DNA of 64,000 nt. It comes from Botryllus schlosseri. Taxonomy: Eukaryota. The stretch spans positions 34,412,001-34,476,000 of the forward strand of contig CM119372.1 of NCBI GenBank assembly GCA_051294905.1, written 5' to 3'. A model generated the notes under the pieces. It did no database searches. It had not been told where the DNA came from and saw nothing but the letters and a program-made list of their open reading frames with translations. The position numbers and the translations under genes were made by a program. Positions 1 through 64,000 of the stretch are shown piece after piece (the first letter of the stretch is position 1; the number at the start of each line of letters is the position of its first letter).

Positions 1-2297
1 TTATGTTTACATCATGATAATTTTCAATATAACACCTGCGTTCGATTGTAAGAAATGAATTCTCAACATGTTGGGCAGACATTCAAATCTCGCATACTCA
101 AACATATTATGTTAATCTCAAGTCGCGGGCACCGAGAAGTAATTACTTTTATCTTACAAAATATACCGCATAGTAATTTCTTTGTCTTACAGAATAGTAA
201 CGACTTTTCAAGTTGAATAAAAAAGACGTGTAGGGATATGAATACAACCAGGCTTGTTATGGATTTTAGGTTTTAGTGCTTGTATGGATTCGTGTATGTT
301 TGGCTGTTTTTCATATTGATACTGTTGAGTTGGTCGGTTAACGGATTTACTTGACAATGTTTTCGTGGTTGATTCTTTGAATATGGTAAGATGGTCAGAT
401 GTCGAGTCGTATTACTATTTCCGTTAACTCAATTACAACAAAACATAACCAGCATTCAAATAATCCGTAAGCTACAAGTGGATTTAAAACTTGATGCTGT
501 TTTGTGGTTAACTCAAGTCAGTGGTCATATTTGTGTTGATTTCAGGAATGATCATGACGAGTTGGTCGGGTAAATTAGTGGTAGTAACTATGACCGTGCA
601 GAGTTGCTGACATTCAAACATCTTTTACGCTGTAATATACGTATTTTATTGTGATAAATTATTTCTCAGTTATTGTTCAGACATTCAAATCTCGTATACT
701 CAAAATATAATATGTTTATGTCAAGTCATTTATGTGTCGATTAGTAAATAGCTTACTTTGTCTTCAGAATAGTAACGACCTTTACAATTGAATAAAAAAG
801 ACCGATCATATGAATACAACCAGAATGAATTAATTCAAATTTGTGAGTTGCAGTGGTATAATCAAGTAAGTGAAAACTAGATTTTGAACACTTGTTAATG
901 TTGTAAATAATTCTTTTGAGTATGGTAAGATGTTAAAAATGTCGCTTTGACAAACGAAAAGTCGGATCGCGAATAGAGTTGCAATGTTCCATTACTTGTT
1001 TCGAATCAATGTGTGTATAATATCAATATGGGACTGTGGGAAAGTTGATAGCCATGTTTGTCAATCCTATTTCAATTCACACTACACCAAAGTCAAAATA
1101 TTTCGTTTCGGATTATCTCAATTTACCTAGTACATCCCGCGAATGGATTCCGACCCATGCTATAACTAGATCGCTATGTCTGATGCATTATCCCGTCAGC
1201 GACGTAGGGCTTTACAATTATTTCACACCTTTTCGAATAAGCGTCAACTTCGCAAAGGATTAGGGTGGGATCAGAAATAAGTGAGAATTTGTCGGTATTC
1301 GAATCATCGTCTGTGACGGCTCTGTTATCCGTTACTTATTAAATTTTACCAGTGAAATCCAGTTCCTGTGACATACCAATTATCAAAATATTACATTGTG
1401 GCGATTGGAATGTATGTAACAACAAGTTGGTGAGGGCTGGCTATGTCTTAGGTGTTATCTCGTGAGTGATCGTGGGATTTGCAACCTATTTCGCACCTTT
1501 TTGAAGGGTTAGTTTGTGAACGCGGCTATTGTTGGTATCGCCGTCTACGCGGGTTCTGTGGTAAACTAATTACCAAAATATTACATTGTCAACGATCGGC
1601 ATGTATGTAACAGCGAGTCGCGAGCGATGGTTATGTCTTAGGTATTATCTTGTGAGTGATCACTGGATTTTACCAATATTTCACACCTTTTTGAAGTGTT
1701 AGTTTGCGAACGCGACTATTGTTGATATTCGAATCACCGTCTACGCCGGCTCTGGGGTAATCTAATTACTCAAACATTACCATGAGAGTAATTCCTAGAC
1801 TTAGCAAACTATTTCACACCTTTTTTGCTGAAAGTACGACATGCCGCCCGCAGTCTATAAACGAAATTACGAATCACTACCGCATCCATAAGACACAATA
1901 GCCGCATGCCACCCCCGCCATAAGACGCAATAGCCGTATGCCACCTCCGCGATAAGACATAAGAGCCGCTTGCGACCGATCCCTATGCTGAAAAGGGTTA
2001 CCGTGCGACCATAAGACACAATAGCCGCTCGCCACCCCGCCCATAAGACGAAAGAGCCGCTTGCCACCCCGGGTTCCCAGCCGCTCGCCACCCCCGCCAT
2101 AAGACGAAAACGTTAGTTCGCCACCCCCGCCATAAGACGAAAACGTTAGTTCGCCACCCCCGCCATAAGACGAAAACGTTAGTTCGCCACCCCCGCCATA
2201 AGACGAAAACGTTAGTTCGCCACCCCCGGTTTCTCGTTAGCTCGCCACCCCGCCCATAAGAGCCCCACCCACCTCACGAGCGATCATAACTACTACT
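1..2297 (-). mobile_element. Copy A of AGT-terminated large element family (terminal 2.3 kb of an arm; rest lies left of window)
   Basis: Ends in ACTACTACT (2289-2297; 5'-AGTAGTAGT on minus). Subterminal GC-rich repeats match those at 6576+, 41730+ and 50609+. Bases 1-130 align with ~62096-62225 of copy D. Confidence 0.8.
2087..2228. repeat. 33-bp subterminal minisatellite (GCCACCCCCGCCATAAGACGAAAACGTTAGTTC, ~4 units)
   Basis: Directly visible tandem units; a related unit occurs at ~50680-50745. Confidence 0.9.
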
Positions 2298-41643: not shown

Positions 41644-44600
41644 GTCTATGGTATATTCACTATATTGTGTTGATTTACGAAATAATTTCGGATCGCCTAC
41701 GATCTTTGTACATTTTGAAAAAACTTGTGAGTAGTATATACGATCGCTCGCATGACGCAATGGGTTTCTTATGGGCCCGCTCGCACATCGTATTGAAAAC
41801 TCGTGTTGGCATATCGTACTTTTAGACCCCCCCTATCGCTCGCACATCGTAATGTGTTCTTATGGGTGCGCTCGCACATCGTACTTTCAAGTATAGGCTG
41901 CGGCGGTGACTCGTATTGAAAACTCGTGTTGGTATATCGTACTTTCGGGTGTAGGCATCTCTCGCACATCGTACTTTCGCATGTCGTACTTTCGCGTATA
42001 GGCTGTGTTGGTGATTCGCTATGTGTTCTTATGGTCGCGTCGGCATATCGTACTTTCGGGTGTAGGCATCTCTCGCACATCGTACTTTCGCATGCCGTAC
42101 TTTCGCGTATAGGCTGTGTTGGTGATTCGCTATGTGTTCTTATGGGTGCGGTCGTGATTCGTACTTTCAGGCATCTCTCGCGCGGTGTTGAATAGTCACC
42201 AACAATAACCACACAAACGGAAACGTGGCTCGTTGTGAGGATTAAGCAGTGCGACCTATATTTCGAATGACCTGCGCGCTGAATTGTTTCACGGCCAACC
42301 GCGTGCTACTATCGATTATTACACTATTCCATTCAGTGCGAAATAGTTTGCTAAATCTAGGAGTCACTTCCGAGGTAATATTTTGGTAATTAGTTTACCA
42401 CAGAGTCGGCGTAGACGGCGATTCGAATATCAACAATAACCACGTTCACAAACTAACACTTCAAAAATGTGTGAAATAGTTTACAAAACCCCGCGATCGC
42501 TGACGAGATAATGTCTCGGACATAACCATCTTTCGCGACTTGGTGTTACAGGCATATCGATCGCTCACGCGGTGAAATATTCGTAGGCATCACTCGCAGA
42601 ATTATATTTTGGTAATTATTTTGTCACAGAACCGGTGTAGACGGTGATTCCAACACCAACAATAACCATGCACACAAACTAACACTTCAAAAAGGGTGTG
42701 AAATAGTTTGCAAAACCCCGCGATCGCTGACAAGATAATGTCTCGGTCATAACCATCTTTCACGACTTGGTGTTACAGGCATATTGATCGCTCACGCGGT
42801 GAAATTTTAGTAATCAGTTTGTCACAGAACTTGATATCGCTGGTAAGATTTAACAAGTAACGAATAACAGACCGCCAGTGTCGGTAACTTGAATAGCGAC
42901 AAATTGTCACTTATTTCCGCTCTAACCCTAATCCTCTGTGAAGTGAACGCTTATTCAAAAGGGTGTGATAATTTTAAAATCCGACGACCACTCACCGGAT
43001 AATGCTTCAGACATAGCAATCCCTCATACCCGCTCACAAGGTAATATTTCGGTAATTAGTTTGTCACAGAACCGTCGCAGGCGGTGATTCGAAAACCAAC
43101 AATTTGTCACTCGCCCGCGATCGCTATATGTTTCACGCCTCCAGAATAGTGGCTGACTTTAGTTGCGTGATAAGATCCATGAAAATATTCAATCAATGTG
43201 TTAGTTTATCAACTTGAAATGAAACTCACTACACAAATCAAGTCGATTCGTATCTGAATGTTCTAAATCGGTACAACTCTAATCCTTTGACAAATCCCTT
43301 AACGCGTTTTTGTTGAATCGAACGTAACCCGAATATTACTGACGCCGACTTTCAGCCGCATTGAATTATTCGCACATTCGCCGCTGTTTTCACACTTATA
43401 GAATCAATACCAACTATAACTCTACAAGAATCAAGAATCACAAGTATGTGCATTACACAGTTATTGTCTTTATTAACTTGAAATCAAACACTTAACAAAA
43501 ACACGCAACTAATCATTTGGCAACTCTAGCATTACCAAAAAAATTCCAGTATTGTTGATTGAAAATCCTTGAGTCATTATTATCAAAAATGTTATAGTAC
43601 CGCATCGGAATCCATTCGCGGGATGTACTAAAGGTAAATCCAGATAATCCAAAATGAAATATTTGGTCTTTGACAAACATGACTACTAACTTTGATCCAG
43701 TCACATTTCAAGATTATACTTTGAAACAATCCTTGAAACTTAAATCTCTATTCACGACTGAGTTTTCCGTTTGTCAGTTTCAGTAAATACTATCGCGATA
43801 TTTTAATGTGTTACTACACACAATAGAATCATTCAATGAAATAGCACCTGTTGTAAATATTTCTAACTTGACAACCACTTGTGCATACCGCGATCGACTT
43901 GTGACGCGATGAGTTAAATCGGAATATTTCAATCTATTTCTCGAAACCTTGAACAAGCTATCGGGTTATTTTTTTTGTTGTAATCGAGTGAACGGAAATA
44001 GTATTACGTCTCAACATTTTAACATCTTCCCATACACAAAAGAGTAAAATACAAAAAACCTTGTCAAGTCAATCCGTTTGTAACTTACCCAACCAAAGCA
44101 AAAAGTATCCTTATGAAAAGTAGACAAGACTACGCGAGTAATCACCACAATCCAAAATCCATAGCAAGTTCGGTTGTATTCATAGTCCACCAACTCGTAC
44201 TTTTATTCAACTGTAAAAGTCGTTACTATTCCGCAAGACAAAGAAATTACTATGTGGTATATTTTGTAAGACAAAAGTAATTACTTCTCGGTGTCGGCGA
44301 CTTGAGATTAACATATGTTTTGAGTATATGATATTTGAATGTCTGACCAACGTAGTTAAGAATTCATTTTATACGATCGAACACCGGTATTACATTGAAA
44401 GTTATCATGCTGTAAACATAAGGATTGACACATGGATTTGACATATGTAATAGTTGATCATGGCTTGATTATTAAATTATTCGCGTTAATTAGACCCGGC
44501 GTTGCGGTAAAGGTTATTATGACAGCAACAAACTTTTCACCGCCGTGGTTATTAACATATTGATTTGTAAAACTATACTTGTCTGAAATGTTCTTGGTTT

Positions 44601-46739
44601 GAAAGATATTCCGTGTTGGTACAAATCACTCTGTGTATTACGGATATCAGAAAATATTTTTACAAATGTAGTTGTTTCCAGTAACCAAGACTAAAGATGA
44701 CACAACAATTTCGTTTGGAATATCTTTACTGGACGCATCCTATTCTACTAGACTTGAGTAATACACAAAACTCATAGCATTAACAAAATCGCAATAGGCG
44801 CTACACTGAAATCTACAAAATGTGTTTGTATTGTTACTCAAAGTAGTGATCATAAATTATCATTTAAATAAGTAATTGTAATCATAAAACCAAACTTGTG
44901 AAAGTCATTACCATAACAAAAGAATATTGTAGGTTGCTTGCTAAATGTATGCCGGAAATATTTGTAGAACGCTCACGACCAAAGAAATCGGAAATTTCTC
45001 CCCATTGTCATTCGTCAAAGTATATGTTGTCACAATACTCATCCCGTAAAAGATCTTACTTGTATGTGATTGAATCGCCGGTAATTAACTCGCTAAATCA
45101 AACCATAAGGAAATTTCACTCAGTCATCGGATTATGATATTAAACAGCGTCGCTTAATCGGCATAGAGCGTTTTTCTAAATGCAAATCATACCTGACCAA
45201 CAGAAAACAATTTTCACTCACCTCGTAATGAAACCAAGTGGTGGGCCTACGTTCAATATTTTGTTTGTGTCAAATACTTTGCAATAAACACACACACTGG
45301 AGTGGTTGAGCTTTACATCATCAAGCTGTCATCTGTAAATCGAGATCACATCCGACTTGTAACTGTATCGTTTACCTAACCGAGTTGTATGCACAGTTTC
45401 ATATTTTTATCATTTAGTGATTGCTGAACATACCAAACGATACACATTCACTTCCGAAATACTGCGTTGATCTCAATTCCCTTTGTCGTGATAACCGAAG
45501 TACATTTGTTTCGAATTCGTAACAGCCGACTTTTCTATGACACGATAAATTTTGACAAGTTATGCTTAGAAGATTGGTTGCATATCGCGAAAAATAACAT
45601 ACTGCTCATATTGATACCGTTAATCGGTATTTTCACGCGAGTCGATTTTCAAATGAGTAAAATTTATTACATGAGTTTCTCCGCTTAATGTAAATGAAAA
45701 CTCAGTCGTCTTTTAACATCACATAGACATTGATAAAAAGTAAGTAAGCAATCAAACACAACACTTTGTACGACACTAATTATTGTTCCACACATCTCAT
45801 TTCATACTAAGTGTATACGAAAGATATTCATGTTACACGAAAATATTCGCTCATGCTACAAACCTGTACAATGATTGGTGGTGTAAGTCCAGCACAATTG
45901 TGGTATCCACACGAGTTTAGTTAACACAATTTACGACACCGAGGTCGCCTCATCTTTCGTAAGACAACAAACCAAGGCTTCAGGATATGTCCATGTCATA
46001 ACAATAAATCAACTACTCCAACAACAGAATACATATGTTTTCTAGCACGGTGCTTACATCTTACACACAAATCAACCAACTTTGCTAACGAAAAGCGCTG
46101 AGTCATCACATGGTTGTCCTCACAACAATACAACTAAAACATACTATCATACAAAATGGCCGTTATAGTTTGCACACCAACGATACATCGTACAAGTAGC
46201 AAGTCTCGAGAATCCAGTTATTCAAAAAAACGTGAAAGTGTTTCTACGCCAAGTCGGTATGTTGACGATAGCATATATTGTAATATCATGATCGATTTAC
46301 ATTCGTTGGTCACAAAATGTCACTACTCTAAATAATTATTTTTCACTCAAAGCCTACTTGTCACCATTCGTTTCATCAAGCACGAGTTCAAGAAACCTGC
46401 TACGACATGAATTGTTATTTTTATGTTGTGTAAATAGGTAATAATTAATTTTAGTAACACTATATCAACATCATCGAGTTGCGTGAATAGATTTACATGT
46501 GGTCTTGTGGTTTTAATCGAAGTATACAGCACGGTCTAATGTAGAGTCATCTCTACTGTACAGCAACTCGGTAATCGAAATGCATTAAAATTTAAACAAC
46601 GATCTTGTTTCGTCGCACCAAAAATATGTTTACTATCGCGATACTCTGCACAGGCCGTGTAAATCCTTTTCACACTCGTAATAGTATACCAACAGCTACC
46701 GGCGACAACGTTTAACAATACCAACAACACTAAACATAC

Positions 46740-47440
46740 GATACCTACCCAAGTAAAATTACCATTTTCACCTAGAGGTCGGTCGTTACCCGAGTAGAAA
46801 TACCATTGTCCTTTGGAGATTTATCGTTTACCCAGTGTAACAAACCTTTTTCCCTTGGAAATATATTTTTTCTCTTGGTAACTAACCTTTTTCACTTGGA
46901 AATCTATTTTTGTCCTGGATAACAAACCTTTTCACTTGGAAATATATTTTTTCTCTTGGTAACAAACCTTTTTCACTTGGAAATATATTTTTTCTCTGGT
47001 TAACAAACCTTTTTCACTTGGAAATATATTTTTTCTCTGGTTAACAAACCTTTTTCACTTGGAAATATATTTTTTCTCTGGTTAACAAACCTTTTTCACT
47101 TGGAAATATATTTTTTCTCTGGGTAACAAACCTTTTTCACTTGGAAATATATTTTTTCCCCGGGTAACAAACCTTTTTCCCTGAGCAACAAACCATTTTC
47201 ACTTGGTGGTTCGTCGTTTACCCGAGTAAAAATATCATTTTCTTTTGGAGATCCGGCGTTTACCCAGTGTAACAATACATTTTCACTTGGAAAAATACTT
47301 TTACCTAGAGTAACTAATCATTTTCTCCTGGGTAACAAACCCTTTTCGTCTGGAAACTATCATTTACCTGAGTACCAATACCGTTTTCACTTGGAAATCT
47401 ATCTTTTCCCTGGGTAACAATACCATTTTCGTTTTAAAAA
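46740..47440. repeat. 41-42 bp tandem array, copy C left arm (mirror at ~49875-50495)
   Basis: Same unit as in copies B and D. Confidence 0.9.
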
Positions 47441-48217
47441 CTGACAACCACACCGGTCAATTTGATACTTTTTGTATATTGTTACAACAGACAGCGACAA
47501 AATATACACCAACAACGACTCCGATACATTTGTCTAATCAAATATTCACTTGCTCTGATGCATCCCATCAAAATCATTGGTTACTCACATACAATAACAA
47601 CGTGCTGTTGTACATCGACATGTATGTTTTCGGAATTGGTGAATAAAGGGGTTTCCGATATGTCCGTGATGTCCGGGTTCGTGCTTTGGATTTTCCAGAG
47701 TCAAAATGTCTGAATAAAACACCTCCTCGACTTTGGTAACTGGTTGATACACGGATAATGGTGTTTGGAAAACGGATGAATTTTTGTTCCCCATCGCGCT
47801 GACAACATCGGGTACTTGTGAGTTTCCTCGGGTCTGTTTACTATATTGTGTCTTTACTGGTCAATACATGTCGCTCCAGTCAGCTGAAACCGGATCACTA
47901 ATATGAGAAAGTGTGGGGGCCGGATCCGGATATTCACTCATGACCCAACGACCGATATTCAAGTAAACATGTTACCGACCGTGTTTTGTCTCCATGAAAA
48001 ATACCTATGCATACACCATCACATCAAGTACGTCACGATTGTTCACAAGTATTTGCGTAAACGAGGTGTATGTACAATGTGTCGATGCACAAACATCATG
48101 GGACACAAATTCACGTTCTCAAGTCTCATCATGCGCCGACTCTGTACATTCAATGTGGGCATAGATGACTTGGAGACATGATACAATGGATAGTGCATTA
48201 TGCATACCGATATATTC

Positions 48218-48496
48218 TCAGTCAAATATGCGACCCATACACATCCATATACCCTGATTTTCGCTGAATATCCACAACACCAACAAATCTGTACATTTCT
48301 TTTCCCCTGACCTCGACGATAGAGTTGTCATCCCAATGTACCAATCGAGTGTATGGTTCATCAGGTGAAAATCCAAATCAAATGTCGCCAAGGTATCGTT
48401 TTTCATTTTCAATATTTCCACCGCTGCATCTTTTCTGTGTCGTAAAACCACGGTGTGAGGCCAGAGGAATCTATGGAACGTTACGCGTAATCCCAT
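48218..48496 (-). pseudogene. Central-spacer gene of unknown function in copy C (1-bp frameshift)
   Basis: Peptide homologous to 57623-57918; frame restored by adding one T in GATTTTCA. Confidence 0.6.
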
Positions 48497-51490
48497 AATT
48501 ACTCGGGGATATAGTCAGGTAACGACAACGTTTTCTCAGTGGTCTGCGTGGGTGCACCGTTTCAATACGTAGCTGGATCAACTAGACCAAAAGTTTCCAA
48601 CCACGTTTTATAACGGCATGTAGAATTACGAGACAGCACCCTCTTGCGGAGTGGTTAACACGAAATCAGTCTTCAACCCACAGAGACACACCTCGGATTA
48701 CATTATCTAATCGTATTCGAACTCGAGATTCACACACACACAGAGTCCCTGTTTACGATTTCAATCCGGAGTCACTGCTCACGATGTTTAGCTGGAGTCG
48801 TTGTGTGGGAGTAGCAACATCGGGCATATTCATCACCTGCAAGATTGATAACGATGGTGATCGCCAAATACCGAAAACCAGGTGAAACACTGCGGTCTCA
48901 GCAAAAAGTTCGCAGGTTAGGACGAACAATACGTGGAGGGATTGAGCGAGTTACGCAACCCGATTATGTCGAAGTCTAGATCACGATACAAGTCTACCTG
49001 AGAATCCGAACAATCTTGCAAAATCAAGGTGTGAACCCGTGAAAGGGCTGTACTCGTGTGAGATGTATTTTTCACAAGTTGGGTGGAGGTCGGTTCATAC
49101 TAAGACCATGTTACGTCCAAATATGACCGCTTGCCTGTCTCCAAGTCATCTATGCCCACATTGAATGTACAGAGTCGGCGCATGATGAGACTTGAGAACG
49201 TGAATTTGTGTCCCATGATGTTTGTGCATCGACACATTGTACATACACCTCGTTTACGCAAATACTTGTGAACAATCGTGACGTACTTGATGTGATGGTG
49301 TATGCATAGGTATTTTTCATGGAGACAAAACACGGTCTGTAACATGTTTACTTGAATATCGGTCGTTGGGTCATGAGTGAATATCCGGATCCGGCCCCCA
49401 CACTTTCTCATATTAGTGATCCGGTTTCAGCTGACTGGAGCGACATGTATTGACCAGTAAAGACACAATATAGTAAACAGACCCGAGGAAACTCACAAGT
49501 ACCCGATGTTGTCAGCGCGATGGGGAACATAAATTCATCCGTTTTCCAAACACCATTATCCGTGTATCAACCAGTTACCAAAGTCGAGGAGGTGTTTTAT
49601 TCAGACATTTTGACTCTGGAAAATCCAAAGCACGAACCCGGACATCACGGACATATCGGAAACCCCTTTATTCACCAATTCCGAAAACATACATGTCGAT
49701 GTACAACAGCACGTTGTTATTGTATGTGAGTAACCAATGATTTTGATGGGATGCATCAGAGCAAGTGAATATTTGATTAGACAAATGTATCGGAGTCGTT
49801 GTTGGTGTATATTTTGTCGCTGTCTGTTGTAACAATATACAAAAAATATCAAATTGACCGGTGTGGTTGTCAGTTTTTAAAACGAAAATGGTATTGTTAC
49901 CCAGGGAAAAGATAGATTTCCAAGTGAAAACGGTATTGGTACTCAGGTAAATGATAGTTTCCAGACGAAAGGGGTTTGTTACCCAGGAGAAAATGATTAG
50001 TTACTCTAGGTAAAAGTATTTTTCCAAGTGAAAATGTATTGTTACACTGGGTAAACGCCGGATCTCCAAAAGAAAATGATATTTTTACTCGGGTAAACGA
50101 CGGACCACCAAGTGAAAATGGTTTGTTGCTCAGGGAAAAAGGTTTGTTACCCGGGGAAAAAATATATTTCCAAGTGAAAAAGGTTTGTTACCCAGAGAAA
50201 AAATATATTTCCAAGTGAAAAAGGTTTGTTAACCAGAGAAAAAATATATTTCCAAGTGAAAAAGGTTTGTTACCAAGAGAAAAAATATATTTCCAAGTGA
50301 AAAAGGTTTGTTATCCAGGACAAAAATAGATTTCCAAGTGAAAAAGGTTAGTTACCAAGAGAAAAAATATATTTCCAAGGGAAAAAGGTTTGTTACACTG
50401 GGTAAACGATAAATCTCCAAAGGACAATGGTATTTCTACTCGGGTAACGACCGACCTCTAGGTGAAAATGGTAATTTTACTTGGGTAGGTATCGTATGTT
50501 TAGTGTTGTTGGTATTGTTAAACGTTGTCGCCGGTAGCTGTTGGTATACTATTACGAGTGTGAAAAGGATTTACACGGCCTGTGCAGAGTATCGCGATAG
50601 TAAACATAAGTAGTTATATAGATCGGTCAACCGGTGGCAGGGGTTCTTATGGGCGGGGTCGCATGCTAACGAGAAACCGGGGGTGGCATGCTAACGTTTT
50701 CGTCTTATGGCGGGGGTGGCATGCTAACGTTTTCGTCTTATGGGTGCGGTCGCATGATAACGCGAAACTCGTGGTGGCATGCTAATGTTTTTTGGTATAC
50801 GTGCGGCGACATGCTAACGACGATAAATGTGTCTGTCATGTATTCTTACGGGATCTGTGGCGACTCGCCATGTGTTCTTATGGGCGCGGTCGTGATTCGT
50901 ACTTTCAGGCATCTCTCGCGCGTTGTTGAATATGTATCAAGTAAATAGTCATGCGAATGAATCTTTGTTAATGTGTATATCGTTATTCTTATGGACGCGG
51001 CGATGATTCGTACTTTCGAGTATAGACATCTCTCGCGTGGTGTTGAATATGTACGAGTCACCAACAATAACCGCGCGGACGGAAACGTGGTTTGTTGTGA
51101 GGATTACGCGTGCGACCTATATTTCGAATGACCTGCGCGCTGACTTATTTCTCGTCTAGTCGCTACTATCGATTATTACACTAGACCGGTCAGTGTGAAA
51201 TAGTTTGATCGTAAATTATGATATATGATGTCGTAGTTTAGTCGTATCAAATGACCGATCGTGTTCTCTCTTTCCTCGCTATTGATTGCTAGCTGAATAA
51301 TACTTTCGGCTTATTCGCTGTTTCGCGCGTACAAAATAGTCTGCTGTTCACAGTCTCAACTTCATCGCGATAGCACAATTTTCACACCTCGATCAGTAGA
51401 ACAACACCGCACTAACGCAGTTGGCGAATCACATAGGTCATACATTTTACGCGAAATGAAATATTGTATTGTGGTATACAAATATGCAAA

Positions 51491-52126
51491 CTATTCTTTC
51501 AATTCAACAAGTCTAGTTAACGAATCGATTTTCAAGCTGCCGACACAGTTTTTAACACGAGTGAGTTGATATTTCTTCCCGGGTACGAGCGAGGCTTTGT
51601 TCCATTGATCCAAAACCACCTCACCAGTATCATCCTTCAATGTAAAACTGTATAATTTCAACTCCTTTCCGGCCCCAGAATTGACCATCTTCTCCTCTCG
51701 AGAAACACAAGTAGCGGCGATCGAAACGTATTCATCTTTATTCCCGTATACCGATTCGCAGGTCAATAATGGGTATTCTTCAGTCGTATGTCTCGATTTT
51801 CCATGCGTGGTTACTGACGAAGCCCGTCCCAGTAATACAGCAGGTTTTCCAGTAAACTTGTCAATTTGGACCCAACCGGATTTGACCATGAGTTTTTTTC
51901 GTTTGGAGAATGCTTTCTCAATGACCCCGAACAATTCACGATTGAAACACGTGAAAGATATCTCTTCGTTATTACCGTCGATGAATATACCTTTGAGATA
52001 TTGGCTAACGCCACCTCTTTTGGGTGATGAGACGAATTTGACGCCGACGTGAAAATTTGAAGTTGCTCCGACTTGCATAGTGTTGACGCTGTTCGATGCC
52101 ATATCGTTTGATAAAGTGGGAGTCAT
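51491..52126 (-). CDS. Tandem OB-fold protein (RPA/SSB-like ssDNA-binding), 211 aa
   Basis: Intact intronless ORF. C-terminal half YVSIAATCVS...KLYSFTLKDDTGEVVLDQWN...PGKKYQLTRVK fits the RPA-type OB pattern. N-terminal half (FIDGNNEEISFTCF) looks like a second OB fold. Confidence 0.7.
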   Translation of the reverse strand: MTPTLSNDMASNSVNTMQVGATSNFHVGVKFVSSPKRGGVSQYLKGIFIDGNNEEISFTCFNRELFGVIEKAFSKRKKLMVKSGWVQIDKFTGKPAVLLGRASSVTTHGKSRHTTEEYPLLTCESVYGNKDEYVSIAATCVSREEKMVNSGAGKELKLYSFTLKDDTGEVVLDQWNKASLVPGKKYQLTRVKNCVGSLKIDSLTRLVELKE

Positions 52127-55100
52127 CAGTGTAACTCACTACACAAATCAAGTTGAATCGTATTTGAATGTATTGATTCGACCCAACTCAAATCCTTTGA
52201 CAAATCCTATTAACGCGATCTGTTGAATCGAACGTAACCTGAATATTACTGACGCCAACATTCACCCGCATCGGATCATTCACACATTCCACGTCGGTGT
52301 TTTAACACTTATAGAATCAATACCAACTATCTCTAACCCGATAATATTCAATCATTTTGGTAATTTGCCAACTTTAAATCCATTCGCGGGATGTACTAAA
52401 GGTAAATCCAAATAATCCAGAATGAAATATTTGGACTTCGACATTGCGTGAATTGAAATAGGTTTGACAAACATGACTACCAACTTTCACCCAGTCACAT
52501 TTCAAGATTATACTTTGAAACAATCCTTGAAACTGACAACTCTATTCACGACTCCGTTTCCGTTTGTAAAATAGAGTTTCAGAAATACTATCACTATGAC
52601 AACTCAACATTTTAACATCTCACCATGCAGAAACGAGTTAAATACAAAAACCTTGGTAAGTCAATCCGTTTGTAGTAACTCACCAAACCAAAACAAAAAG
52701 TGTCCGTATGAAAAGTAGACAAGACTACGCGAGTAATCACTACAACCCACAAACATACCAACTCAGTTGTATCCATATCCCATATTTTTTATTCAACTGT
52801 AACATGAAGTAATTACTACTTGGCGCGCGGTTTGAGATTAACACATTACATTTGAGTATACGAGATTTGAATGTCTGACCAACGTAGTTGAGAATTCTTA
52901 CAATCGAACGATGGTGTTATATTCAAAGTTATCATGCTGTGAACATAAGGATTGACGCATTGATTTGACATATGAGATTTGTAATAGTTGATCATTACTT
53001 GATTATTAAATTATGACATTATTAGACCAGGGTTGTGTTGAAGGTTATTACGATACCAACAAACTTTTCAGAAACATTGTTATTAACATATCGATTTGTA
53101 AAACTAGATTAACATGTCTGAAATGTTTTGGTTGGGAAGATTATGCCGTGTTCGTAAAAACCACGCAGCGTATTGTGGAAATCAGGAAATAATTTACAAA
53201 TGTAATTGTCTCCAGTAACCAAGACTAAAGATGAAACAACAATTTTCTTTGTTGAACAATAACCGGTATAATACTTTATCGTCGTAATCTGCGGTGGGAA
53301 TTGAAACACTTTCGCACATTTCCCGGTGTCAAGATATCACACTAGGTGAATTGACATATCGCCGCTTGATTAATGCTTAATCCGTTCGCGCCATTTCACA
53401 CACTTTGATCATTACAAAAAACAAATTGGAATATGTTTGCTATATGCATTCAATTCGGTTAGAAATGTCTGGTACACAACAATCGTAATATCAATGAAGT
53501 ACTTGCTACACTGTAATTCACTTAACGTGTTTTGCATTGTTGATCATTTGTAGTATTGATTGTTTTTGAACCCCCGAATAATAATTCCCCGACATGAAAC
53601 CAAACCGTTGAAAGTCGTTACCATCACAACGAAACAATTTGTACGATGTTTGCTAAATGTATCCTATAGTTAGGTGTACTAGAATTATTTGTCTAACACA
53701 TACACCGACAATGCAATCGAAAATTTTTCCGTTGTCATTGCTAGAGTAAATGTCATCACAATACTCTGTCACTAAAAGACGTTACTTGTATGTGATTGAA
53801 TCCCTAACAATTATCTCACTAAACCGAACTCCAAAGAAATTTTACTCACTCGACGGATATGAAACAGCGTCGCTTAATCGGTCTATATCGTTTTTCTAAA
53901 GGTAAATCATATCCATCCAATAGAAAACAATTTTCACTAGCTTGGTAATGAAACCGAAGTCTTCAGTCGATATTTTGTTTGTGTCAAATACTTTGTAATA
54001 AACACATTTGAGTGGTTGAGCTTTACATCATCAAGCTGTCATCTGTAAATCGAGATTACATCCGACTTGTAACTCTATCGTTTAACTAACCGAGTTGTAT
54101 GCACAGTTTGATATTTTGGTCATTTAGTGATTGCTGAACATACCAAACGATGCACACCCACCGCCGAAATACTGCGTTGATCTTAATTTCCATCATCGTG
54201 ATAATCGAAGTACATTTCTTTCGAATTCGTAACAACCGACTACGACATGATAAATTTTTGACAAGTTTACTTAGAAGGTTTGTTGCATATCGCGAAAAAT
54301 AATATACCACTCATATTGATACTGTTACTTCATTGATCGATATTTTTAAACGAGTAAAATTTATTACTTGAGTTTCTCCGCTTAATGTAAATGTAAACTC
54401 AGTCGTCTTTTAACATCACAAATACATTGATAAAAAGTAGGCAATCAAACACAACACTTTGTACGACACTAATTATTGTTCCACACATCTCATTTCATAC
54501 TAAGTGTATACGAAAGATATTCACGACACATGAAAATATTCGCTCATGCTACGAACATACGCAATGATTGGTGGTGCTTTCAAACTGTTTCGATATCACA
54601 AGAACTTTATTGTCTGAATGGGTGTTCATGTATCTTAATAATCAAATAGTTCAACACAGAACTAGTACTAACAGAAACATCAGAGAGTTGTTTACACAAA
54701 AGTTTGTATGTGTACAGTATGCGAATACCATGTGTAAGTCCAGCACAATTGCAGTATCCATCCGAGTTTAGTCAACACAAATTTATTACAACGGAGCCAC
54801 GTAAACTTTCGTGAAAGAAAAGCATACTCACTTCCAGAGGGTTATGTCAACACCATAGCAGTAAATCAGCTACTCCAACAACAAAGTACATATGTTTCTA
54901 GCCACGATCCTTACATCTTTCACATAGATCAATCTAGTTTGCTAACGAAATGTGCTGAGTCATCACACGATTGCCCTCACAACAAAACAGCTAGAAGATA
55001 TTATCATACAAAAATATTCCTAACCCTTTGCGCACCAGTGACAAATCATACAACAAACATTTTTTGTGAGGTGAATTGTTGTTCAGTGTCAAGTCTACCT

Positions 55101-55709
55101 GTTGAAACGTACATTAAAACAACACAGTCACAATTCAATTAAAACCACGAATCTATTTTCATTTCGTCACATACAGAAAAATAAATTTTCTTTCCCGAAC
55201 ACATACTTGTAACCAATCGCTTTCATTAAACACACATCTCCATAAAAGTATTTACTTTCTACAGCATAGACAGTCCGATGTAGTCAAGAAATATTTTTAT
55301 TAATCAAAATCATCGATTTCTGTTCACGGCGTTAGTGTGTGCATGTCATACCTGTGGGCCCCGTATTAAAATGGACAAGACACGACTGAATGTAAGGGGG
55401 TAGAAGTCTATCACATCGATTTACATGTGGTCCTCGCTACGGTTTCAAAAAACGAATCATATATTTTGCATTGGTCGAGACCGAGCGAACCAGTTACATG
55501 TATTCGCGGTAATGATTTTGCTTGTCATATGCGAATGATAGGGTTGCTACTCCGACAAATCAAATCAACATACAACAATCTTCTGACGATCATAATAGCA
55601 ATTTCATTTTCCACCCCTTCGTAACTGTATACCCACGAAAAGTATATGGTACAACTCGGTAACTACGTTTAACAAGACCAATCACACTACCAGCGTTGAA
55701 CACAAGATA

Positions 55710-56365
55710 CCTACCCAAGTAAAAATATCATTCTGGTTTGGACAACTGACGTTTACCTGTGTAAAACTATCATTTTCACTTGGAGGTCCACCGTTACCTA
55801 ACTAAAATACCATTGTCCTTTGGAGATTTATCGTTTACCCAGTGTAACAATCCCCTTTTCCTTTGGAAATATATTTTTTTCTCTGGGTAACAAACTTTTT
55901 CACTTGGAAATATATTTTTTTCCCTGGATAACAATCCTTTTTCACTTGGAAATATATTTTTTCCCTGGATAACAATCCTTTTTCACTTGGAAATATATTT
56001 TTTCTCTGGGTAACAAACCTTTTTCACTTGGAAATATATTTTTTCCCTGGATAACAATCCTTTTTCACTTGGAAATATATTTTTTCTCTGGGTAACAAAC
56101 CTTTTTCACTTGGAAATATATTTTTTCTCTTGGTAATAAACCTTTTTCACTTGGAAATATATTTTTTCTCTGAGTAACAAACCTTTTTCACTTGGGAATA
56201 TATTTTTTCTCTGGATAACAAACCATTTTCACTTGGTGGGTCGTCGTTTACCTTAGTAAAAATATTATTTTCCTTTGGAGATCCGGCGTTTACCCAGGGT
56301 AACAATACATTTTCTCTTGTCCATCTAGCTTTTCCCAGAGTAACAAAACCATTTTCATTTTGAAA
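55710..56365. repeat. 41-42 bp tandem array, copy D left arm (mirror at ~58763-59335, two units shorter)
   Basis: Same unit as in copies B and C. Confidence 0.9.
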
Positions 56366-57622
56366 TCTGACAAACACACCTGACAATTTGGTATTTGTTG
56401 TATTGACGATAGTTTGAAATAGATTACAACGAACAGTGACGGAAATATACACGGACTACCGGTTTCAGAGTATACCTCCATCAGTCGTATCACATCAATA
56501 TCATCGGTTAACCACATACAATATGCTCTTGTACACAGAAATGTATGTTCTGGAAAATTGGACAATAGGCTTCGATAGTTCTGTGATGTCCGGGTTCGTG
56601 CTTTGGATTTTCCAGAGTCAAAATGTCTGAATAAAACACCTCCTCGACGAAGGTTGGTATGTGGATAACGGTGTTCGGAAAACGGTTGGATTTATGTCAC
56701 CCATCGCGATAACAATTCCGAGTCGAGTTTTCTCCCGCATGTTTACTATATTGTGTCTTTATTGGTCAATGTATGTCTCGACATTCAGTTTGAAATCCGA
56801 AACCCTGATAAAGTATGTAACCGGATCCGGATATCAACTCTGAATCGATAAACCAATGAACAATATTCAAAGTAAACATGTTACACCCTGTGTTTCCACG
56901 AAAAAATACCATCCAGACATACGTCGCGCTTGTTTGCCCACACCAGTATACGCGTAAATGGAGGGGTGTGACATTGCATGCAATGTGTTGGTATACAAAC
57001 ATCGATCCACAGACATTATCATAGCCGGTAGTTTTGATGTAGATCGAATGTTATCACACCCGATAACAATACCAATAAGCCACATTGCAATGACTCTGAG
57101 TCTGCGCTATTACATCGATATTTCGACACCGTTCACTGATTTACTCGATGGTGTTATCGTGTTGTAACATTACAAGATAGTCATGACCCTATCTCCGGAC
57201 AGATCACCCAGACCAATTGGATACATCGGTCGATATCCATCGTGTTGTCGACACCGAAGTTTTCTGCTGAGACTGCAGCGTTTGACCAATGTGAACTATC
57301 GAAGTACGGTGCTCGAAATGATTGCAATCAGTCTTTCATTCACGATGCATGGACATCGCTACTCCCACATAACGACTCCAAATAAATATCGTGCAAATCT
57401 CGGACTGATACTGTGATCCAATAAGGTGTGTTTCTGTGGAATGAAGACTGCAATCGTACACCACAATAGAACACTACCTCGTGATTTCACACGCAAGCAT
57501 ATTACACACTTTCGTAAGGGTCTAGTTCGTCCGGCGACATTTCGAAACGGTCATCGCCACAGGAGATCGAGGTTGGTCTCGTCATATCGAAGCATTTTGA
57601 AACTGTCATCACCACAAGGCTA

Positions 57623-57918
57623 TTGACGTCGATTCTGTTGGTCATGTCAATCCGTTTCACAATCCACCGTTTTTCAACTCCCCGCACCATAGTGTTACGA
57701 CACAGACAAGAAGCGTCGGTGGAAATAATAAAACACGGAAAGCACACTTTGGTGTTATTTGACATGGATTTTACACCAGACGAACCTTACATTCGAGCGA
57801 TGCATTGGAATGACGCTTGTATTATTGACGTAGAAGGAACAGAAATGTATCGATTTATTGGTTTCGTACATATCCAACAAAAAGCTGGTATATGATTGTG
57901 CACGGTTCGCATATTTGA
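57623..57918 (+). pseudogene. Central-spacer gene of unknown function in copy D (1-bp frameshift near C-terminus)
   Basis: RFTIHRFSTPRTIVLRHRQEASVEIIK...DFTPDEPYIRAMHWND...EMYRFIGFV matches the copy C spacer peptide. Confidence 0.6.
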
Positions 57919-60900
57919 CTGTGAACGCAATATTGATATATGTTGTAAAGTTCACTTTCACCGTTGTGCGAATAACCCATGTTACGGTTCCATGTTTGTG
58001 TGTCTGTATGTCCTGCTTCAGATTGATTCAGAGTCATTGCAATGTGGCTTATTGGTATTGTTATCGGGTGTGATAACATTCGATCTACATCAAAACTACC
58101 GGCTATGATAATGTCTGTGGATCGATGTTTGTATACCAACACATTGCATGCAATGTCACACCCCTCCATTTACGCGTATACTGGTGTGGGCAAACAAGCG
58201 CGACGTATGTCTGGATGGTATTTTTTCGTGGAAACACAGGGTGTAACATGTTTACTTTGAATATTGTTCATTGGTTTATCGATTCAGAGTTGATATCCGG
58301 ATCCGGTTACATACTTTATCAGGGTTTCGGATTTCAAACTGAATGTCGAGACATACATTGACCAATAAAGACACAATATAGTAAACATGCGGGAGAAAAC
58401 TCGACTCGGAATTGTTATCGCGATGGGTGACATAAATCCAACCGTTTTCCGAACACCGTTATCCACATACCAACCTTCGTCGAGGAGGTGTTTTATTCAG
58501 ACATTTTGACTCTGGAAAATCCAAAGCACGAACCCGGACATCACAGAACTATCGAAGCCTATTGTCCAATTTTCCAGAACATACATTTCTGTGTACAAGA
58601 GCATATTGTATGTGGTTAACCGATGATATTGATGTGATACGACTGATGGAGGTATACTCTGAAACCGGTAGTCCGTGTATATTTCCGTCACTGTTCGTTG
58701 TAATCTATTTCAAACTATCGTCAATACAACAAATACCAAATTGTCAGGTGTGTTTGTCAGATTTCAAAATGAAAATGGTTTTGTTACTCTGGGAAAAGCT
58801 AGATGGACAAGAGAAAATGTATTGTTACCCTGGGTAAACGCCGGATCTCCAAAGGAAAATAATATTTTTACTAAGGTAAACGACGACCCACCAAGTGAAA
58901 ATGGTTTGTTATCCAGAGAAAAAATATATTCCCAAGTGAAAAAGGTTTGTTACCCAGAGAAAAAATATATTTCCAAGTGAAAAAGGATTGTTATCCAGGG
59001 AAAAAATATATTTCCAAGTGAAAAAGGTTTGTTACCCAGAGAAAAAATATATTTCCAAGTGAAAAAGGATTGTTATCCAGGGAAAAAATATATTTCCAAG
59101 TGAAAAAGGATTGTTATCCAGGGAAAAAATATATTTCCAAGTGAAAAAGTTTGTTACCCAGAGAAAAAAATATATTTCCAAAGGAAAAGGGGATTGTTAC
59201 ACTGGGTAAACGATAAATCTCCAAAGGACAATGGTATTTTAGTTAGGTAACGGTGGACCTCCAAGTGAAAATGATAGTTTTACACAGGTAAACGTCAGTT
59301 GTCCAAACCAGAATGATATTTTTACTTGGGTAGGTATCTTGTGTTCAACGCTGGTAGTGTGATTGGTCTTGTTAAACGTAGTTACCGAGTTGTACCATAT
59401 ACTTTTCGTGGGTATACAGTTACGAAGGGGTGGAAAATGAAATTGCTATTATGATCGTCAGAAGATTGTTGTATGTTGATTTGATTTGTCGGAGTAGCAA
59501 CCCTATCATTCGCATATGACAAGCAAAATCATTACCGCGAATACATGTAACTGGTTCGCTCGGTCTCGACCAATGCAAAATATATGATTCGTTTTTTGAA
59601 ACCGTAGCGAGGACCACATGTAAATCGATGTGATAGACTTCTACCCCCTTACATTCAGTCGTGTCTTGTCCATTTTAATACGGGGCCCACAGGTATGACA
59701 TGCACACACTAACGCCGTGAACAGAAATCGATGATTTTGATTAATAAAAATATTTCTTGACTACATCGGACTGTCTATGCTGTAGAAAGTAAATACTTTT
59801 ATGGAGATGTGTGTTTAATGAAAGCGATTGGTTACAAGTATGTGTTCGGGAAAGAAAATTTATTTTTCTGTATGTGACGAAATGAAAATAGATTCGTGGT
59901 TTTAATTGAATTGTGACTGTGTTGTTTTAATGTACGTTTCAACAGGTAGACTTGACACTGAACAACAATTCACCTCACAAAAAATGTTTGTTGTATGATT
60001 TGTCACTGGTGCGCAAAGGGTTAGGAATATTTTTGTATGATAATATCTTCTAGCTGTTTTGTTGTGAGGGCAATCGTGTGATGACTCAGCACATTTCGTT
60101 AGCAAACTAGATTGATCTATGTGAAAGATGTAAGGATCGTGGCTAGAAACATATGTACTTTGTTGTTGGAGTAGCTGATTTACTGCTATGGTGTTGACAT
60201 AACCCTCTGGAAGTGAGTATGCTTTTCTTTCACGAAAGTTTACGTGGCTCCGTTGTAATAAATTTGTGTTGACTAAACTCGGATGGATACTGCAATTGTG
60301 CTGGACTTACACATGGTATTCGCATACTGTACACATACAAACTTTTGTGTAAACAACTCTCTGATGTTTCTGTTAGTACTAGTTCTGTGTTGAACTATTT
60401 GATTATTAAGATACATGAACACCCATTCAGACAATAAAGTTCTTGTGATATCGAAACAGTTTGAAAGCACCACCAATCATTGCGTATGTTCGTAGCATGA
60501 GCGAATATTTTCATGTGTCGTGAATATCTTTCGTATACACTTAGTATGAAATGAGATGTGTGGAACAATAATTAGTGTCGTACAAAGTGTTGTGTTTGAT
60601 TGCCTACTTTTTATCAATGTATTTGTGATGTTAAAAGACGACTGAGTTTACATTTACATTAAGCGGAGAAACTCAAGTAATAAATTTTACTCGTTTAAAA
60701 ATATCGATCAATGAAGTAACAGTATCAATATGAGTGGTATATTATTTTTCGCGATATGCAACAAACCTTCTAAGTAAACTTGTCAAAAATTTATCATGTC
60801 GTAGTCGGTTGTTACGAATTCGAAAGAAATGTACTTCGATTATCACGATGATGGAAATTAAGATCAACGCAGTATTTCGGCGGTGGGTGTGCATCGTTTG

Positions 60901-62916
60901 GTATGTTCAGCAATCACTAAATGACCAAAATATCAAACTGTGCATACAACTCGGTTAGTTAAACGATAGAGTTACAAGTCGGATGTAATCTCGATTTACA
61001 GATGACAGCTTGATGATGTAAAGCTCAACCACTCAAATGTGTTTATTACAAAGTATTTGACACAAACAAAATATCGACTGAAGACTTCGGTTTCATTACC
61101 AAGCTAGTGAAAATTGTTTTCTATTGGATGGATATGATTTACCTTTAGAAAAACGATATAGACCGATTAAGCGACGCTGTTTCATATCCGTCGAGTGAGT
61201 AAAATTTCTTTGGAGTTCGGTTTAGTGAGATAATTGTTAGGGATTCAATCACATACAAGTAACGTCTTTTAGTGACAGAGTATTGTGATGACATTTACTC
61301 TAGCAATGACAACGGAAAATTTTCGATTGCATTGTCGGTGTATGTGTTAGACAAATAATTCTAGTACACCTAACTATAGGATACATTTAGCAAACATCGT
61401 ACAAATTGTTTCGTTGTGATGGTAACGACTTTCAACGGTTTGGTTTCATGTCGGGGAATTATTATTCGGGGGTTCAAAAACAATCAATACTACAAATGAT
61501 CAACAATGCAAAACACGTTAAGTGAATTACAGTGTAGCAAGTACTTCATTGATATTACGATTGTTGTGTACCAGACATTTCTAACCGAATTGAATGCATA
61601 TAGCAAACATATTCCAATTTGTTTTTTGTAATGATCAAAGTGTGTGAAATGGCGCGAACGGATTAAGCATTAATCAAGCGGCGATATGTCAATTCACCTA
61701 GTGTGATATCTTGACACCGGGAAATGTGCGAAAGTGTTTCAATTCCCACCGCAGATTACGACGATAAAGTATTATACCGGTTATTGTTCAACAAAGAAAA
61801 TTGTTGTTTCATCTTTAGTCTTGGTTACTGGAGACAATTACATTTGTAAATTATTTCCTGATTTCCACAATACGCTGCGTGGTTTTTACGAACACGGCAT
61901 AATCTTCCCAACCAAAACATTTCAGACATGTTAATCTAGTTTTACAAATCGATATGTTAATAACAATGTTTCTGAAAAGTTTGTTGGTATCGTAATAACC
62001 TTCAACACAACCCTGGTCTAATAATGTCATAATTTAATAATCAAGTAATGATCAACTATTACAAATCTCATATGTCAAATCAATGCGTCAATCCTTATGT
62101 TCACAGCATGATAACTTTGAATATAACACCATCGTTCGATTGTAAGAATTCTCAACTACGTTGGTCAGACATTCAAATCTCGTATACTCAAATGTAATGT
62201 GTTAATCTCAAACCGCGCGCCAAGTAGTAATTACTTCATGTTACAGTTGAATAAAAAATATGGGATATGGATACAACTGAGTTGGTATGTTTGTGGGTTG
62301 TAGTGATTACTCGCGTAGTCTTGTCTACTTTTCATACGGACACTTTTTGTTTTGGTTTGGTGAGTTACTACAAACGGATTGACTTACCAAGGTTTTTGTA
62401 TTTAACTCGTTTCTGCATGGTGAGATGTTAAAATGTTGAGTTGTCATAGTGATAGTATTTCTGAAACTCTATTTTACAAACGGAAACGGAGTCGTGAATA
62501 GAGTTGTCAGTTTCAAGGATTGTTTCAAAGTATAATCTTGAAATGTGACTGGGTGAAAGTTGGTAGTCATGTTTGTCAAACCTATTTCAATTCACGCAAT
62601 GTCGAAGTCCAAATATTTCATTCTGGATTATTTGGATTTACCTTTAGTACATCCCGCGAATGGATTTAAAGTTGGCAAATTACCAAAATGATTGAATATT
62701 ATCGGGTTAGAGATAGTTGGTATTGATTCTATAAGTGTTAAAACACCGACGTGGAATGTGTGAATGATCCGATGCGGGTGAATGTTGGCGTCAGTAATAT
62801 TCAGGTTACGTTCGATTCAACAGATCGCGTTAATAGGATTTGTCAAAGGATTTGAGTTGGGTCGAATCAATACATTCAAATACGATTCAACTTGATTTGT
62901 GTAGTGAGTTACACTG

Positions 62917-63552
62917 ATGACTCCCACTTTATCAAACGATATGGCATCGAACAGCGTCAACACTATGCAAGTCGGAGCAACTTCAAATTTTCACGTCGGC
63001 GTCAAATTCGTCTCATCACCCAAAAGAGGTGGCGTTAGCCAATATCTCAAAGGTATATTCATCGACGGTAATAACGAAGAGATATCTTTCACGTGTTTCA
63101 ATCGTGAATTGTTCGGGGTCATTGAGAAAGCATTCTCCAAACGAAAAAAACTCATGGTCAAATCCGGTTGGGTCCAAATTGACAAGTTTACTGGAAAACC
63201 TGCTGTATTACTGGGACGGGCTTCGTCAGTAACCACGCATGGAAAATCGAGACATACGACTGAAGAATACCCATTATTGACCTGCGAATCGGTATACGGG
63301 AATAAAGATGAATACGTTTCGATCGCCGCTACTTGTGTTTCTCGAGAGGAGAAGATGGTCAATTCTGGGGCCGGAAAGGAGTTGAAATTATACAGTTTTA
63401 CATTGAAGGATGATACTGGTGAGGTGGTTTTGGATCAATGGAACAAAGCCTCGCTCGTACCCGGGAAGAAATATCAACTCACTCGTGTTAAAAACTGTGT
63501 CGGCAGCTTGAAAATCGATTCGTTAACTAGACTTGTTGAATTGAAAGAATAG
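62917..63552 (+). CDS. Tandem OB-fold protein, identical mirror copy of 51491-52126
   Basis: Identical 211-aa translation. Confidence 0.7.
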   Translation: MTPTLSNDMASNSVNTMQVGATSNFHVGVKFVSSPKRGGVSQYLKGIFIDGNNEEISFTCFNRELFGVIEKAFSKRKKLMVKSGWVQIDKFTGKPAVLLGRASSVTTHGKSRHTTEEYPLLTCESVYGNKDEYVSIAATCVSREEKMVNSGAGKELKLYSFTLKDDTGEVVLDQWNKASLVPGKKYQLTRVKNCVGSLKIDSLTRLVELKE

Positions 63553-64000
63553 TTTGCATATTTGTATACCACAATACAATATTTCATTTCGCGTAAAATG
63601 TATGACCTATGTGATTCGCCAACTGCGTTAGTGCGGTGTTGTTCTACTGATCGAGGTGTGAAAATTGTGCTATCGCGATGAAGTTGAGACTGTGAACAGC
63701 AGACTATTTTGTACGCGCGAAACAGCGAATAAGCCGAAAGTATTATTCAGCTAGCAATCAATAGCGAGGAAAGAGAGAACACGATCGGTCATTTGATACG
63801 ACTAAACTACGACATCATATATCATAATTTACGATCAAACTATTTCACACTGACCGGTCTAGTGTAATAATCGATAGTAGCGACTAGACGAGAAATAAGT
63901 CAGCGCGCAGGTCATTCGAAATATAGGTCGCACGCGTAATCCTCACAACAAACCACGTTTCCGTCCGCGCGGTTATTGTTGGTGACTCGTACATATTCAA

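Follow-up and report, generated by a model that had tools for sequence, protein, structure and literature searches.

Foldback transposons, such as FB of Drosophila, have long inverted arms with internal tandem repeats and a loop, mostly lack a transposase and are prone to rearrangement. Yeast pGKL killer plasmids, which are protein-primed linear plasmids, have hairpin or palindromic deletion derivatives. DNA from incomplete adenovirus particles reportedly carries long inverted repeats of one genome end, in work attributed to Daniell in 1976 and to Daniell and Mullenbach in 1978. Snap-back, or copy-back, defective viral genomes are defined in general terms in a passage of PMC13506859. For vertebrate Mavericks (Polintons), an excerpt of PMC8097293 gives an (AGT)2//(ACT)2 end motif, perfect target site duplications (TSDs) of 6 bp, terminal inverted repeats (TIRs) of 46-1,447 bp (mean 402) and lengths of 12.7-24.6 kb. 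A Polinton replication model, in which excised single strands anneal through their TIRs and are copied by protein-primed synthesis, is quoted in part of bioRxiv 10.64898/2026.07.28.741278. So far, Polinton/Maverick copying has been inferred from genes alone. Here, we describe a family of giant palindromic elements with Polinton ends from Botryllus schlosseri, found in a window of 64,000 bp (GCA_051294905.1, contig CM119372.1, positions 34,412,001-34,476,000 of the forward strand).

The palindromes are a Polinton-derived, snap-back-shaped and mostly non-coding element family, in which two arms of 5.5-6.7 kb surround a loop of 0.15-1 kb. Like Polintons and Mavericks, they have (AGT)2...(ACT)2 ends, 6-bp TSDs and a comparable length, and they are continuous in sequence with a resident element that carries pPolB and rve genes. 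Unlike them, the palindromes consist to 93% of their long arms, lack polymerase, integrase, ATPase and capsid genes, have arms that evolve in concert, and carry at most one small gene, which is then present twice.

The family was noticed in an initial annotation made from the letters of the window, which described two of its copies, C and D, as an arm, a spacer of about 0.95 kb and an inverted arm, some 13.8 kb in all. This build is confirmed for copy D, which self-comparison and flanking sequence place at 50609-64434 (13,826 bp; arms of 6,494 and 6,410 bp, loop of 922 bp). The next 20 kb on either side of the window were added, and the right ends of D and of the composite described below were read from these; the final 434 bp of D lie outside the window, with the right terminus ACTACT at 64434. 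As annotated, the arms make up 93% of the element and are almost identical (99.85-100%). Two point changes separate them outside the 41-bp tandem arrays: there is a 1-bp indel at 53724, and the base at 57100 is substituted. The same description does not hold for copy C, whose loop of 957 bp is followed by only 1,473 bp of inverted arm, and which belongs to a composite of 31,584 bp. The reported starts were all recovered, namely AGTAGT in C at 41730, in D at 50609 and in copy A (AGTAGTAGT, at 2297 on the minus strand), and AGTATT in copy B at 6576. C and D do differ strongly, as their arms are alignable over 55% at 83% identity.

The genome searched comprises 495.5 Mb in 219 contigs, and genome copy numbers given as candidates (for palindromes, loops and polymerases) are loose first-look counts. 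The first 491 bases of D have at least 124 matches (2,507 loose candidates), many of them as plus/minus pairs 11-15.6 kb apart. Ten such pairs were fetched as further genomic copies for comparison, and nine are palindromes like D, with arms of 5,474-6,716 bp at 98.3-99.98% identity and loops of 150-975 bp. The D loop itself occurs in full length, at 90-96% identity, at no fewer than 40 further loci (1,052 loose candidates). Between copies, 30-87% of the arms can be aligned, at 81-92% identity, with two sister pairs at 98%. Tandem arrays cover a few hundred bp per arm, and the arms are mostly unique sequence. The palindromes occupy many loci with distinct flanks and TSDs, and are thus not a fold-back artefact. 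Despite heavy indel turnover, their usual total length is 12.8-14.2 kb, compared with 15.7 kb for the putative helper described below. A length that varies so little would fit a packaging constraint, without proving one; copy A (9.5 kb) and the composite (31.6 kb) deviate from it.

Right ends in ACT and 6-bp TSDs had been proposed as a check, and both were scored in 13 elements (the ten fetched copies, the composite, copy A and D). Twelve combine AGTAGT...ACTACT ends with a perfect 6-bp TSD: TACAAT, GACGTC, CATGCG, GTCGGC, ACTGTA, CTGGCA, TGCGAT, GTCATT, AGTCAC, AACGGG, CTTGTG (composite) and TACAGT (A). For the palindromic elements alone, the count is 11 of 12. This pattern is not chance. The expected TSD is missing only in D, whose ends are intact and whose left flank, AACATA, is mirrored by the right flank, TATGTT. 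In copy A, which ends in AGTAGTAGT...ACTACTACT, the arms align for about 3.0 kb (7 mismatches) and enclose a middle of 3.4 kb. For the arm of copy B, self-comparison of the window found no inverted partner nearby.

An autonomous Polinton sharing these termini had also been proposed as a target of search, and a copy on contig 9 (25683260-25698854) fits this description. It is 15,663 bp long, with TIRs of 749 bp (1 mismatch), AGTAGT...ACTACT ends and the TSD CATGCG. An open reading frame (ORF) of 1,205 aa matches PF03175 DNA_pol_B_2 (E 3.5e-8; 33.2 bits, cut-off 25.8), and one of 359 aa matches both PF00665 rve (E 2.9e-16) and the PF00385 chromodomain (E 4.3e-8). There is also a weak A32-like ATPase match (RNA_helicase at 22.2 bits, cut-off 21.5, with AAA_14 and Pox_A32 below their cut-offs). 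Pfam gave zero matches for an ORF of 432 aa, and its nearest Atlas clusters (score 0.98) have PF21738 DJR-like_dom in 14-30% of their members, a lead only towards a DJR-like capsid protein. No protease was recognised among the ORFs of this copy. With pPolB, an rve-chromodomain integrase, TIRs, ends and TSD, the contig 9 copy is a predicted autonomous Polinton/Maverick. Of its polymerase, at least 38 copies with 92% identity or more were scored (428 first-look candidates), 32 of these 38 without a stop, and the Polinton parent family appears to be resident and recently active. The polymerase copies come in two forms. In one, with open frames of 1,205-1,242 aa, the alignment to the contig 9 protein starts at residue 2-6; in the other, with open frames of 1,295-1,300 aa, it starts only at residue 68-69 (45 in one copy), and the N-terminal part is different.

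The leftmost 1.6 kb of the contig 9 copy (the TIR plus 0.85 kb) recurs in D at 94-96% identity; for D taken together with a palindromic copy on contig 11 the range is 94-97%. The remaining subfamilies align to about 0.4-0.6 kb of the contig 9 TIR only. Past the 1.6 kb, blastn and tblastx of the palindromes against the contig 9 copy found no similarity (tblastx at most 29.5 bits), and a Pfam search of 15 ORFs from the D arm and loop gave nothing at E <= 0.01. The ends, the TSDs, the shared 1.6 kb and the absent mobility enzymes support the view, already put forward in the initial annotation, that these are non-autonomous Polinton derivatives. The palindromes appear to have kept the AGTAGT...ACTACT ends, the subterminal repeats and the 6-bp footprint of the parent, and the D subfamily apparently also its left-most gene. 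As they lack polymerase, integrase and capsid genes, their copying and integration would have to use autonomous proteins in trans, and the shared ends together with the 32 open polymerase copies of 38 point to such mobilisation by autonomous copies.

The annotation had found no recognisable genes in the palindromes. This stands for polymerase, integrase, ATPase and capsid genes, none of which was found, but D-type elements have one predicted OB-fold ORF per arm. The ORF lies inside the 1.6 kb common to D and the contig 9 Polinton. It is intact in the autonomous copy and in both arms in five of 11 palindromic arm sets, and absent from the other six, with C, A and B among these. Among 348 candidates in the genome, 150 matches were scored, at 93-100% identity, and all 150 have an open frame; six copies give pairwise dN/dS values of 0.18-0.41. 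Inverted pairs account for 96 of the 150 matches (48 pairs; median spacing 11.4 kb, 42 within 10.7-12.7 kb), and of the 54 single copies, 21 have a listed polymerase match no more than 8 kb away. Five of the 48 pairs are spaced at 14.8-28.2 kb, compared with the usual 11.4 kb or so, and are candidate nested or composite elements; one wide pair, on contig 2 (15285634-15310624), surrounds a C-type core.

Pfam gave no match for the OB-fold ORF, and a PDB profile search nothing below E 0.24. A word-based protein search returned one close match, and full HMMER three, of which one was informative at 26% identity. An AlphaFold model from a single sequence was unusable (pLDDT 33.5), while one from a four-row alignment (pLDDT 69.9, pTM 0.47) has two barrels of five strands each, with an OB-type helix in one. 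In Foldseek, this model matches DNA-binding domains A and B of RPA70 best (E 1.7e-9), ahead of other RPA structures, Teb1, POT1 and HIN-200 tandem OB folds; in total, 98 matches reach E <= 0.001. An Atlas feature search gave RPA-like OB-fold clusters, a lead independent of the model. The ORF thus probably encodes a single-strand-DNA-binding protein of the Polinton replication module.

How the arms change over time can be read from the two sister pairs, for which both arms of both members were aligned. In one pair, 56 differences are common to both arms and 5 are confined to one arm (6,458 ungapped columns); in the other, the counts are 111 and 8 (6,143 ungapped columns). Hence, 92-93% of the changes in these sister lineages are symmetric, which suggests that one arm has repeatedly been templated on the other.

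Further evidence comes from copy C. A palindrome about the D loop spans 41730-73313, with 99.9% identity over 14,426 aligned bases, and D lies inside it. C is thus not a 13.8-kb element but part of a composite of 31,584 bp, bounded by AGTAGT...ACTACT and the perfect 6-bp TSD CTTGTG (Table 1). Its left half holds an outer C arm (T_C), an inner C arm (P_C), the C loop (S1) and an inverted inner C arm (P_C'). D follows, and then P_C, S1' (inverted), P_C' and T_C'. Within the window, the left arm of C covers 41730-48178, and D begins at the base after P_C' (50609). Intact C-type copies run on past the position of P_C' with TTTTTGGTGCG, and in one of them, on contig 15, the arm reads ...AAACATA TTTTTGG... 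where D sits in the composite. As the C arm is uninterrupted there, D was inserted at an ordinary position within the right arm rather than at a boundary of the element. What follows D on the right is the left-hand sequence in reverse complement.

The divergence between the parts of the composite is uneven. An 81-bp indel and 7 substitutions over 1,473 bases (0.48%; 3 outside the arrays) distinguish P_C from the adjacent P_C'; P_C and its far partner at 66865-68418 show 0 differences in 1,554 bases. S1 and S1' differ at 1 of 957 positions, and T_C and T_C' at 1 of 4,895. Some 20 differences would be expected between the latter two had T_C' been the original right arm of C, which argues that the right half of the composite, as far as the terminus, is a recent copy of the left half. 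By our own arithmetic, the chance of at least 7 of 8 substitutions falling in P, which is 23% of the sequence, is about 2e-4. Outside the 41-bp arrays, the two halves of the composite differ at 7 points, and copy numbers of the 41-bp arrays are unequal. Among the matches listed, 2 of 43 span the C/D junction, at this locus only.

Two further loci carry related structures. On contig 13 (4152700-4156700), a further inverted duplication joins two C-type cores that lie 3.7 kb from each other, with arms of at least 1,325 bp (100% identical) and an asymmetric loop of 1.35 kb; its axis lies in the outer arm, and the terminus side is missing. On contig 10 (12100300-12103950), two opposed D-type loops share one palindrome, with arms of at least 1,787 bp at 99.94% identity around a centre of 75 bp. 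Its axis is placed about 0.4 kb past the loop, making this a second kind of re-symmetrised element.

Two other accounts of the composite were considered and rejected. Many genomic matches stop exactly at 50608, which suggested an independent foldback element P-S-P' (the 4-kb core at 46625-50608); the palindrome continues past 50608 in the intact C-type copy, and the matches stop there since D starts. Insertion of D at the axis of a loop-less C dimer was also ruled out, as the junction has no palindromic 6-mer able to be a TSD.

Table 1. Parts of the palindromic copies, the composite and the associated ORFs within the window
Feature	Position	Strand	Details
Left TSD CTTGTG of the composite	41724..41729		right copy after 73313, outside window
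T_C, outer C arm	41730..46624	+	starts AGTAGTATATACGATCG; mirror copy 68419-73313
P_C, inner C arm	46625..48178	+	contains 41-bp tandem arrays
S1, C loop	48179..49135		957 bp; inverted repeat of S1 at 65908-66864, outside window
P_C', inverted inner C arm	49136..50608	-	1,473 bp, interrupted by D
Left arm of D	50609..57102	+	6,494 bp, AGTAGT end
33-bp subterminal repeats in D left arm	50678-50762		repeat analysis
OB-fold ORF	51491..52126	-	211 aa, or 214 aa from stop to stop; tandem OB fold predicted, similar to DNA-binding domains A and B of RPA70
41-bp array in D left arm	55844-56236		repeat analysis
Loop S2 of D	57103..58024		922 bp; also symmetry axis of whole composite
Right arm of D	58025..64000	-	runs on to 64434 outside window; ACTACT end
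OB-fold ORF mirror copy	62917..63552	+	100% identical
Copy A, right part	1..2297	-	whole element 9,458 bp, begins 7,160 bp before window
Copy B, single degenerate arm	6576 to ~13791	+	AGTATT end; 148-bp tandem repeats directly after

It is likely, in our view, that the palindromes are Polinton/Maverick derivatives that are mobilised in trans and rebuilt by fold-back (snap-back) copying. The integrase and polymerase of autonomous copies would act on the shared ends, and replication of a linear copy would start with the protein-primed polymerase at a terminus. Single-stranded palindromic DNA would then fold back and synthesis would turn at the loop, with one half templating the other, so that each new copy would start with identical arms, as long terminal repeats (LTRs) do. 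The most economical history of the composite is of the same sort. A C element whose arms were already about 0.5% apart would have received D in its right arm, and fold-back at the D loop, presumably on a free linear molecule, would have copied the left half out to the C terminus. The product would be a 31.6-kb palindrome with C ends and one TSD. Fold-back copying is favoured both by the symmetry of the substitutions and by the freshly copied right half of the composite. Copying that reaches the very end of the template is as expected of a free linear molecule; a template switch in situ would need to rejoin by homology at the last bases only.

Alternatively, the symmetry might be kept or rebuilt in the chromosome, by gene conversion and by stalled forks that switch template at hairpins, with the composite formed in situ after D had entered an integrated C. 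Large chromosomal palindromes, such as those of the human Y, are homogenised by gene conversion, and conversion from arm to arm within the chromosome could maintain the arm identity seen here. Other points also count against the explanation favoured here. The axis of the contig 13 structure, in an outer arm with no terminus side, is not what terminus-primed copy-back would yield, so chromosomal events probably contribute to the formation of some palindromes. As the C/D junction is confined to one locus among the matches listed, the composite may never have transposed as a unit, and at twice the autonomous length such a unit would exceed the room in a capsid made for 15.7 kb. Neither an extrachromosomal nor a protein-linked form was observed. 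The OB-fold ORF, absent from six of 11 arm sets, appears not to be required for propagation, and its fold assignment comes from a model of moderate confidence (pTM 0.47) and a four-sequence alignment. However, conversion between the C arms would be unable to shift the axis from S1 to S2 or to duplicate P_C and S1, and the 0.48% divergence of P_C and P_C' implies that the C arms were not kept identical in place. Fold-back in situ would need a return to homology inside the 6.4-kb right arm, whereas the mirror reaches the terminus with 1 difference in 4,895 bases against about 20 expected. On this balance, we judge a purely chromosomal origin of the symmetry unlikely.

The 31.6-kb mirror might also be an assembly error in a family that is itself real, with plain nesting of D in C (about 27.6 kb) as the true locus. 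Arms of 15 kb at 99.95% identity are difficult to assemble, the right junction of D, which repeats the left one in reverse complement, requires no reads of its own, and Logan contigs over 50300-58700 (four runs from four studies), at 69-352 bp, bridge nothing. Yet the halves differ at 7 points and in array copy number, so they were resolved separately by the assembler, and four of the point differences (48433, 49971, 50277 and 50536) fall inside the segment that would be spurious. Together with the similar double-loop and double-core palindromes on contigs 10 and 13, this makes an assembly error very improbable. Even less credence is due to the idea that these are classical foldback transposons of another superfamily, Polinton-like at their ends only. 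Long inverted arms, internal tandem arrays, a loop and the lack of a transposase gene would fit, but D has a contiguous 1.6 kb at 94-96% identity in common with the left end of the autonomous Polinton, gene included, the 6-bp TSD and AGTAGT ends are the same as in that Polinton, and the tandem arrays are a small fraction of the arms. This alternative can be regarded as largely refuted already.

The resemblance of the palindromes to the other known systems can be stated more closely. With snap-back defective genomes, they have in common a highly symmetric palindrome, one genome end kept twice with its origin and terminal signals, a length near that of the helper and, as proposed here, formation by reverse-complementary copying and dependence on a protein-primed helper. 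They differ in being integrated in the germline with TSDs and in forming a diversified family up to about 19% apart, and neither packaging nor interference is known for them. Foldback transposons share the long inverted arms, the tandem repeats, the loop, the lack of a transposase in most copies and the proneness to rearrangement. Unlike in these, the arms of the palindromes are mostly unique, the ends, the TSD length and the 1.6 kb are those of a Polinton, and pPolB and integrase would come from the helper; arms made mainly of tandem repeats, with ends and TSDs of their own, as in FB-type elements, were not found in the palindromes. The pGKL derivatives are likewise a fold-back form of a protein-primed linear replicon with one terminus kept twice, but these are cytoplasmic, and neither integrated nor amplified as genomic repeats.

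A further reading, possible though doubtful, would see in the palindromes the satellites or defective-interfering genomes, heritable and integrated, of a live Polinton virus. They would be rebuilt by snap-back from one half in every cycle and held near helper length by packaging in helper capsids, and one subfamily would bring a double dose of its own predicted single-strand-DNA-binding protein. If true, this would make them the first natural record of the linear protein-primed Polinton intermediates that have been proposed but never observed, and read-through transcripts, as perfect hairpins, could feed small-RNA silencing of the helper.

Even as non-autonomous derivatives, the palindromes bear on how Polintons are copied. 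They would be abundant natural derivatives with the shape that fold-back of a linear protein-primed replicon predicts, including identical halves, symmetric substitutions and re-symmetrised composites, and the replication model would become testable in one genome by ordinary sequencing. The 6-kb arms could act as an internal clock of insertion age, similar to LTRs. A seemingly gene-less parasite of a virus-like transposon may also retain one predicted replication gene. In addition, perfect palindromes of 13-30 kb (roughly 1,000-2,500 by the loose candidate counts) are likely hot spots of rearrangement and assembly trouble. Full-text searches of the literature, with Repbase and subscription journals outside their coverage, found no description of palindromic Polinton derivatives. 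What is added here is the autonomous partner, the shared gene, the count of symmetric substitutions and the evidence that whole halves have been recopied.

Some additional observations concern the family and its surroundings. Two right ends of an element on contig 2 (20717215 and 20633862), 83 kb apart, have identical 40-bp flanks, and this insertion locus was probably duplicated within a larger segment. About 40-46% of the words sampled from the D loop region occur in seawater or marine metagenome runs and in runs of other organisms, which suggests, as a lead only, that close relatives of the family are present in other marine samples. In the window, a scan for tRNA genes found zero, and Rfam matched zero families over 41000-64000. 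An ORF of 179 aa with a THAP domain (E 2e-15) lies at 2511-3050 on the minus strand, and 214 bp separate it from the right end of A; with the Gypsy-type ORFs described below, it identifies the window as animal DNA. A 148-bp tandem repeat in 4.8 copies (13845-14547) stands immediately 3' of the solo arm B. Four long ORFs at 21807-29126 (minus strand) contain RNase H and integrase domains in two sets, one including an RVT_1 reverse transcriptase, and are Gypsy-type LTR retrotransposon sequence, probably from two elements or a duplication; a 674-aa ORF within this region, at 24447-26471, is without a Pfam match. Finally, a (TCCC)n microsatellite of 71 units at 36502-36880 is followed by a 46-bp duplication.

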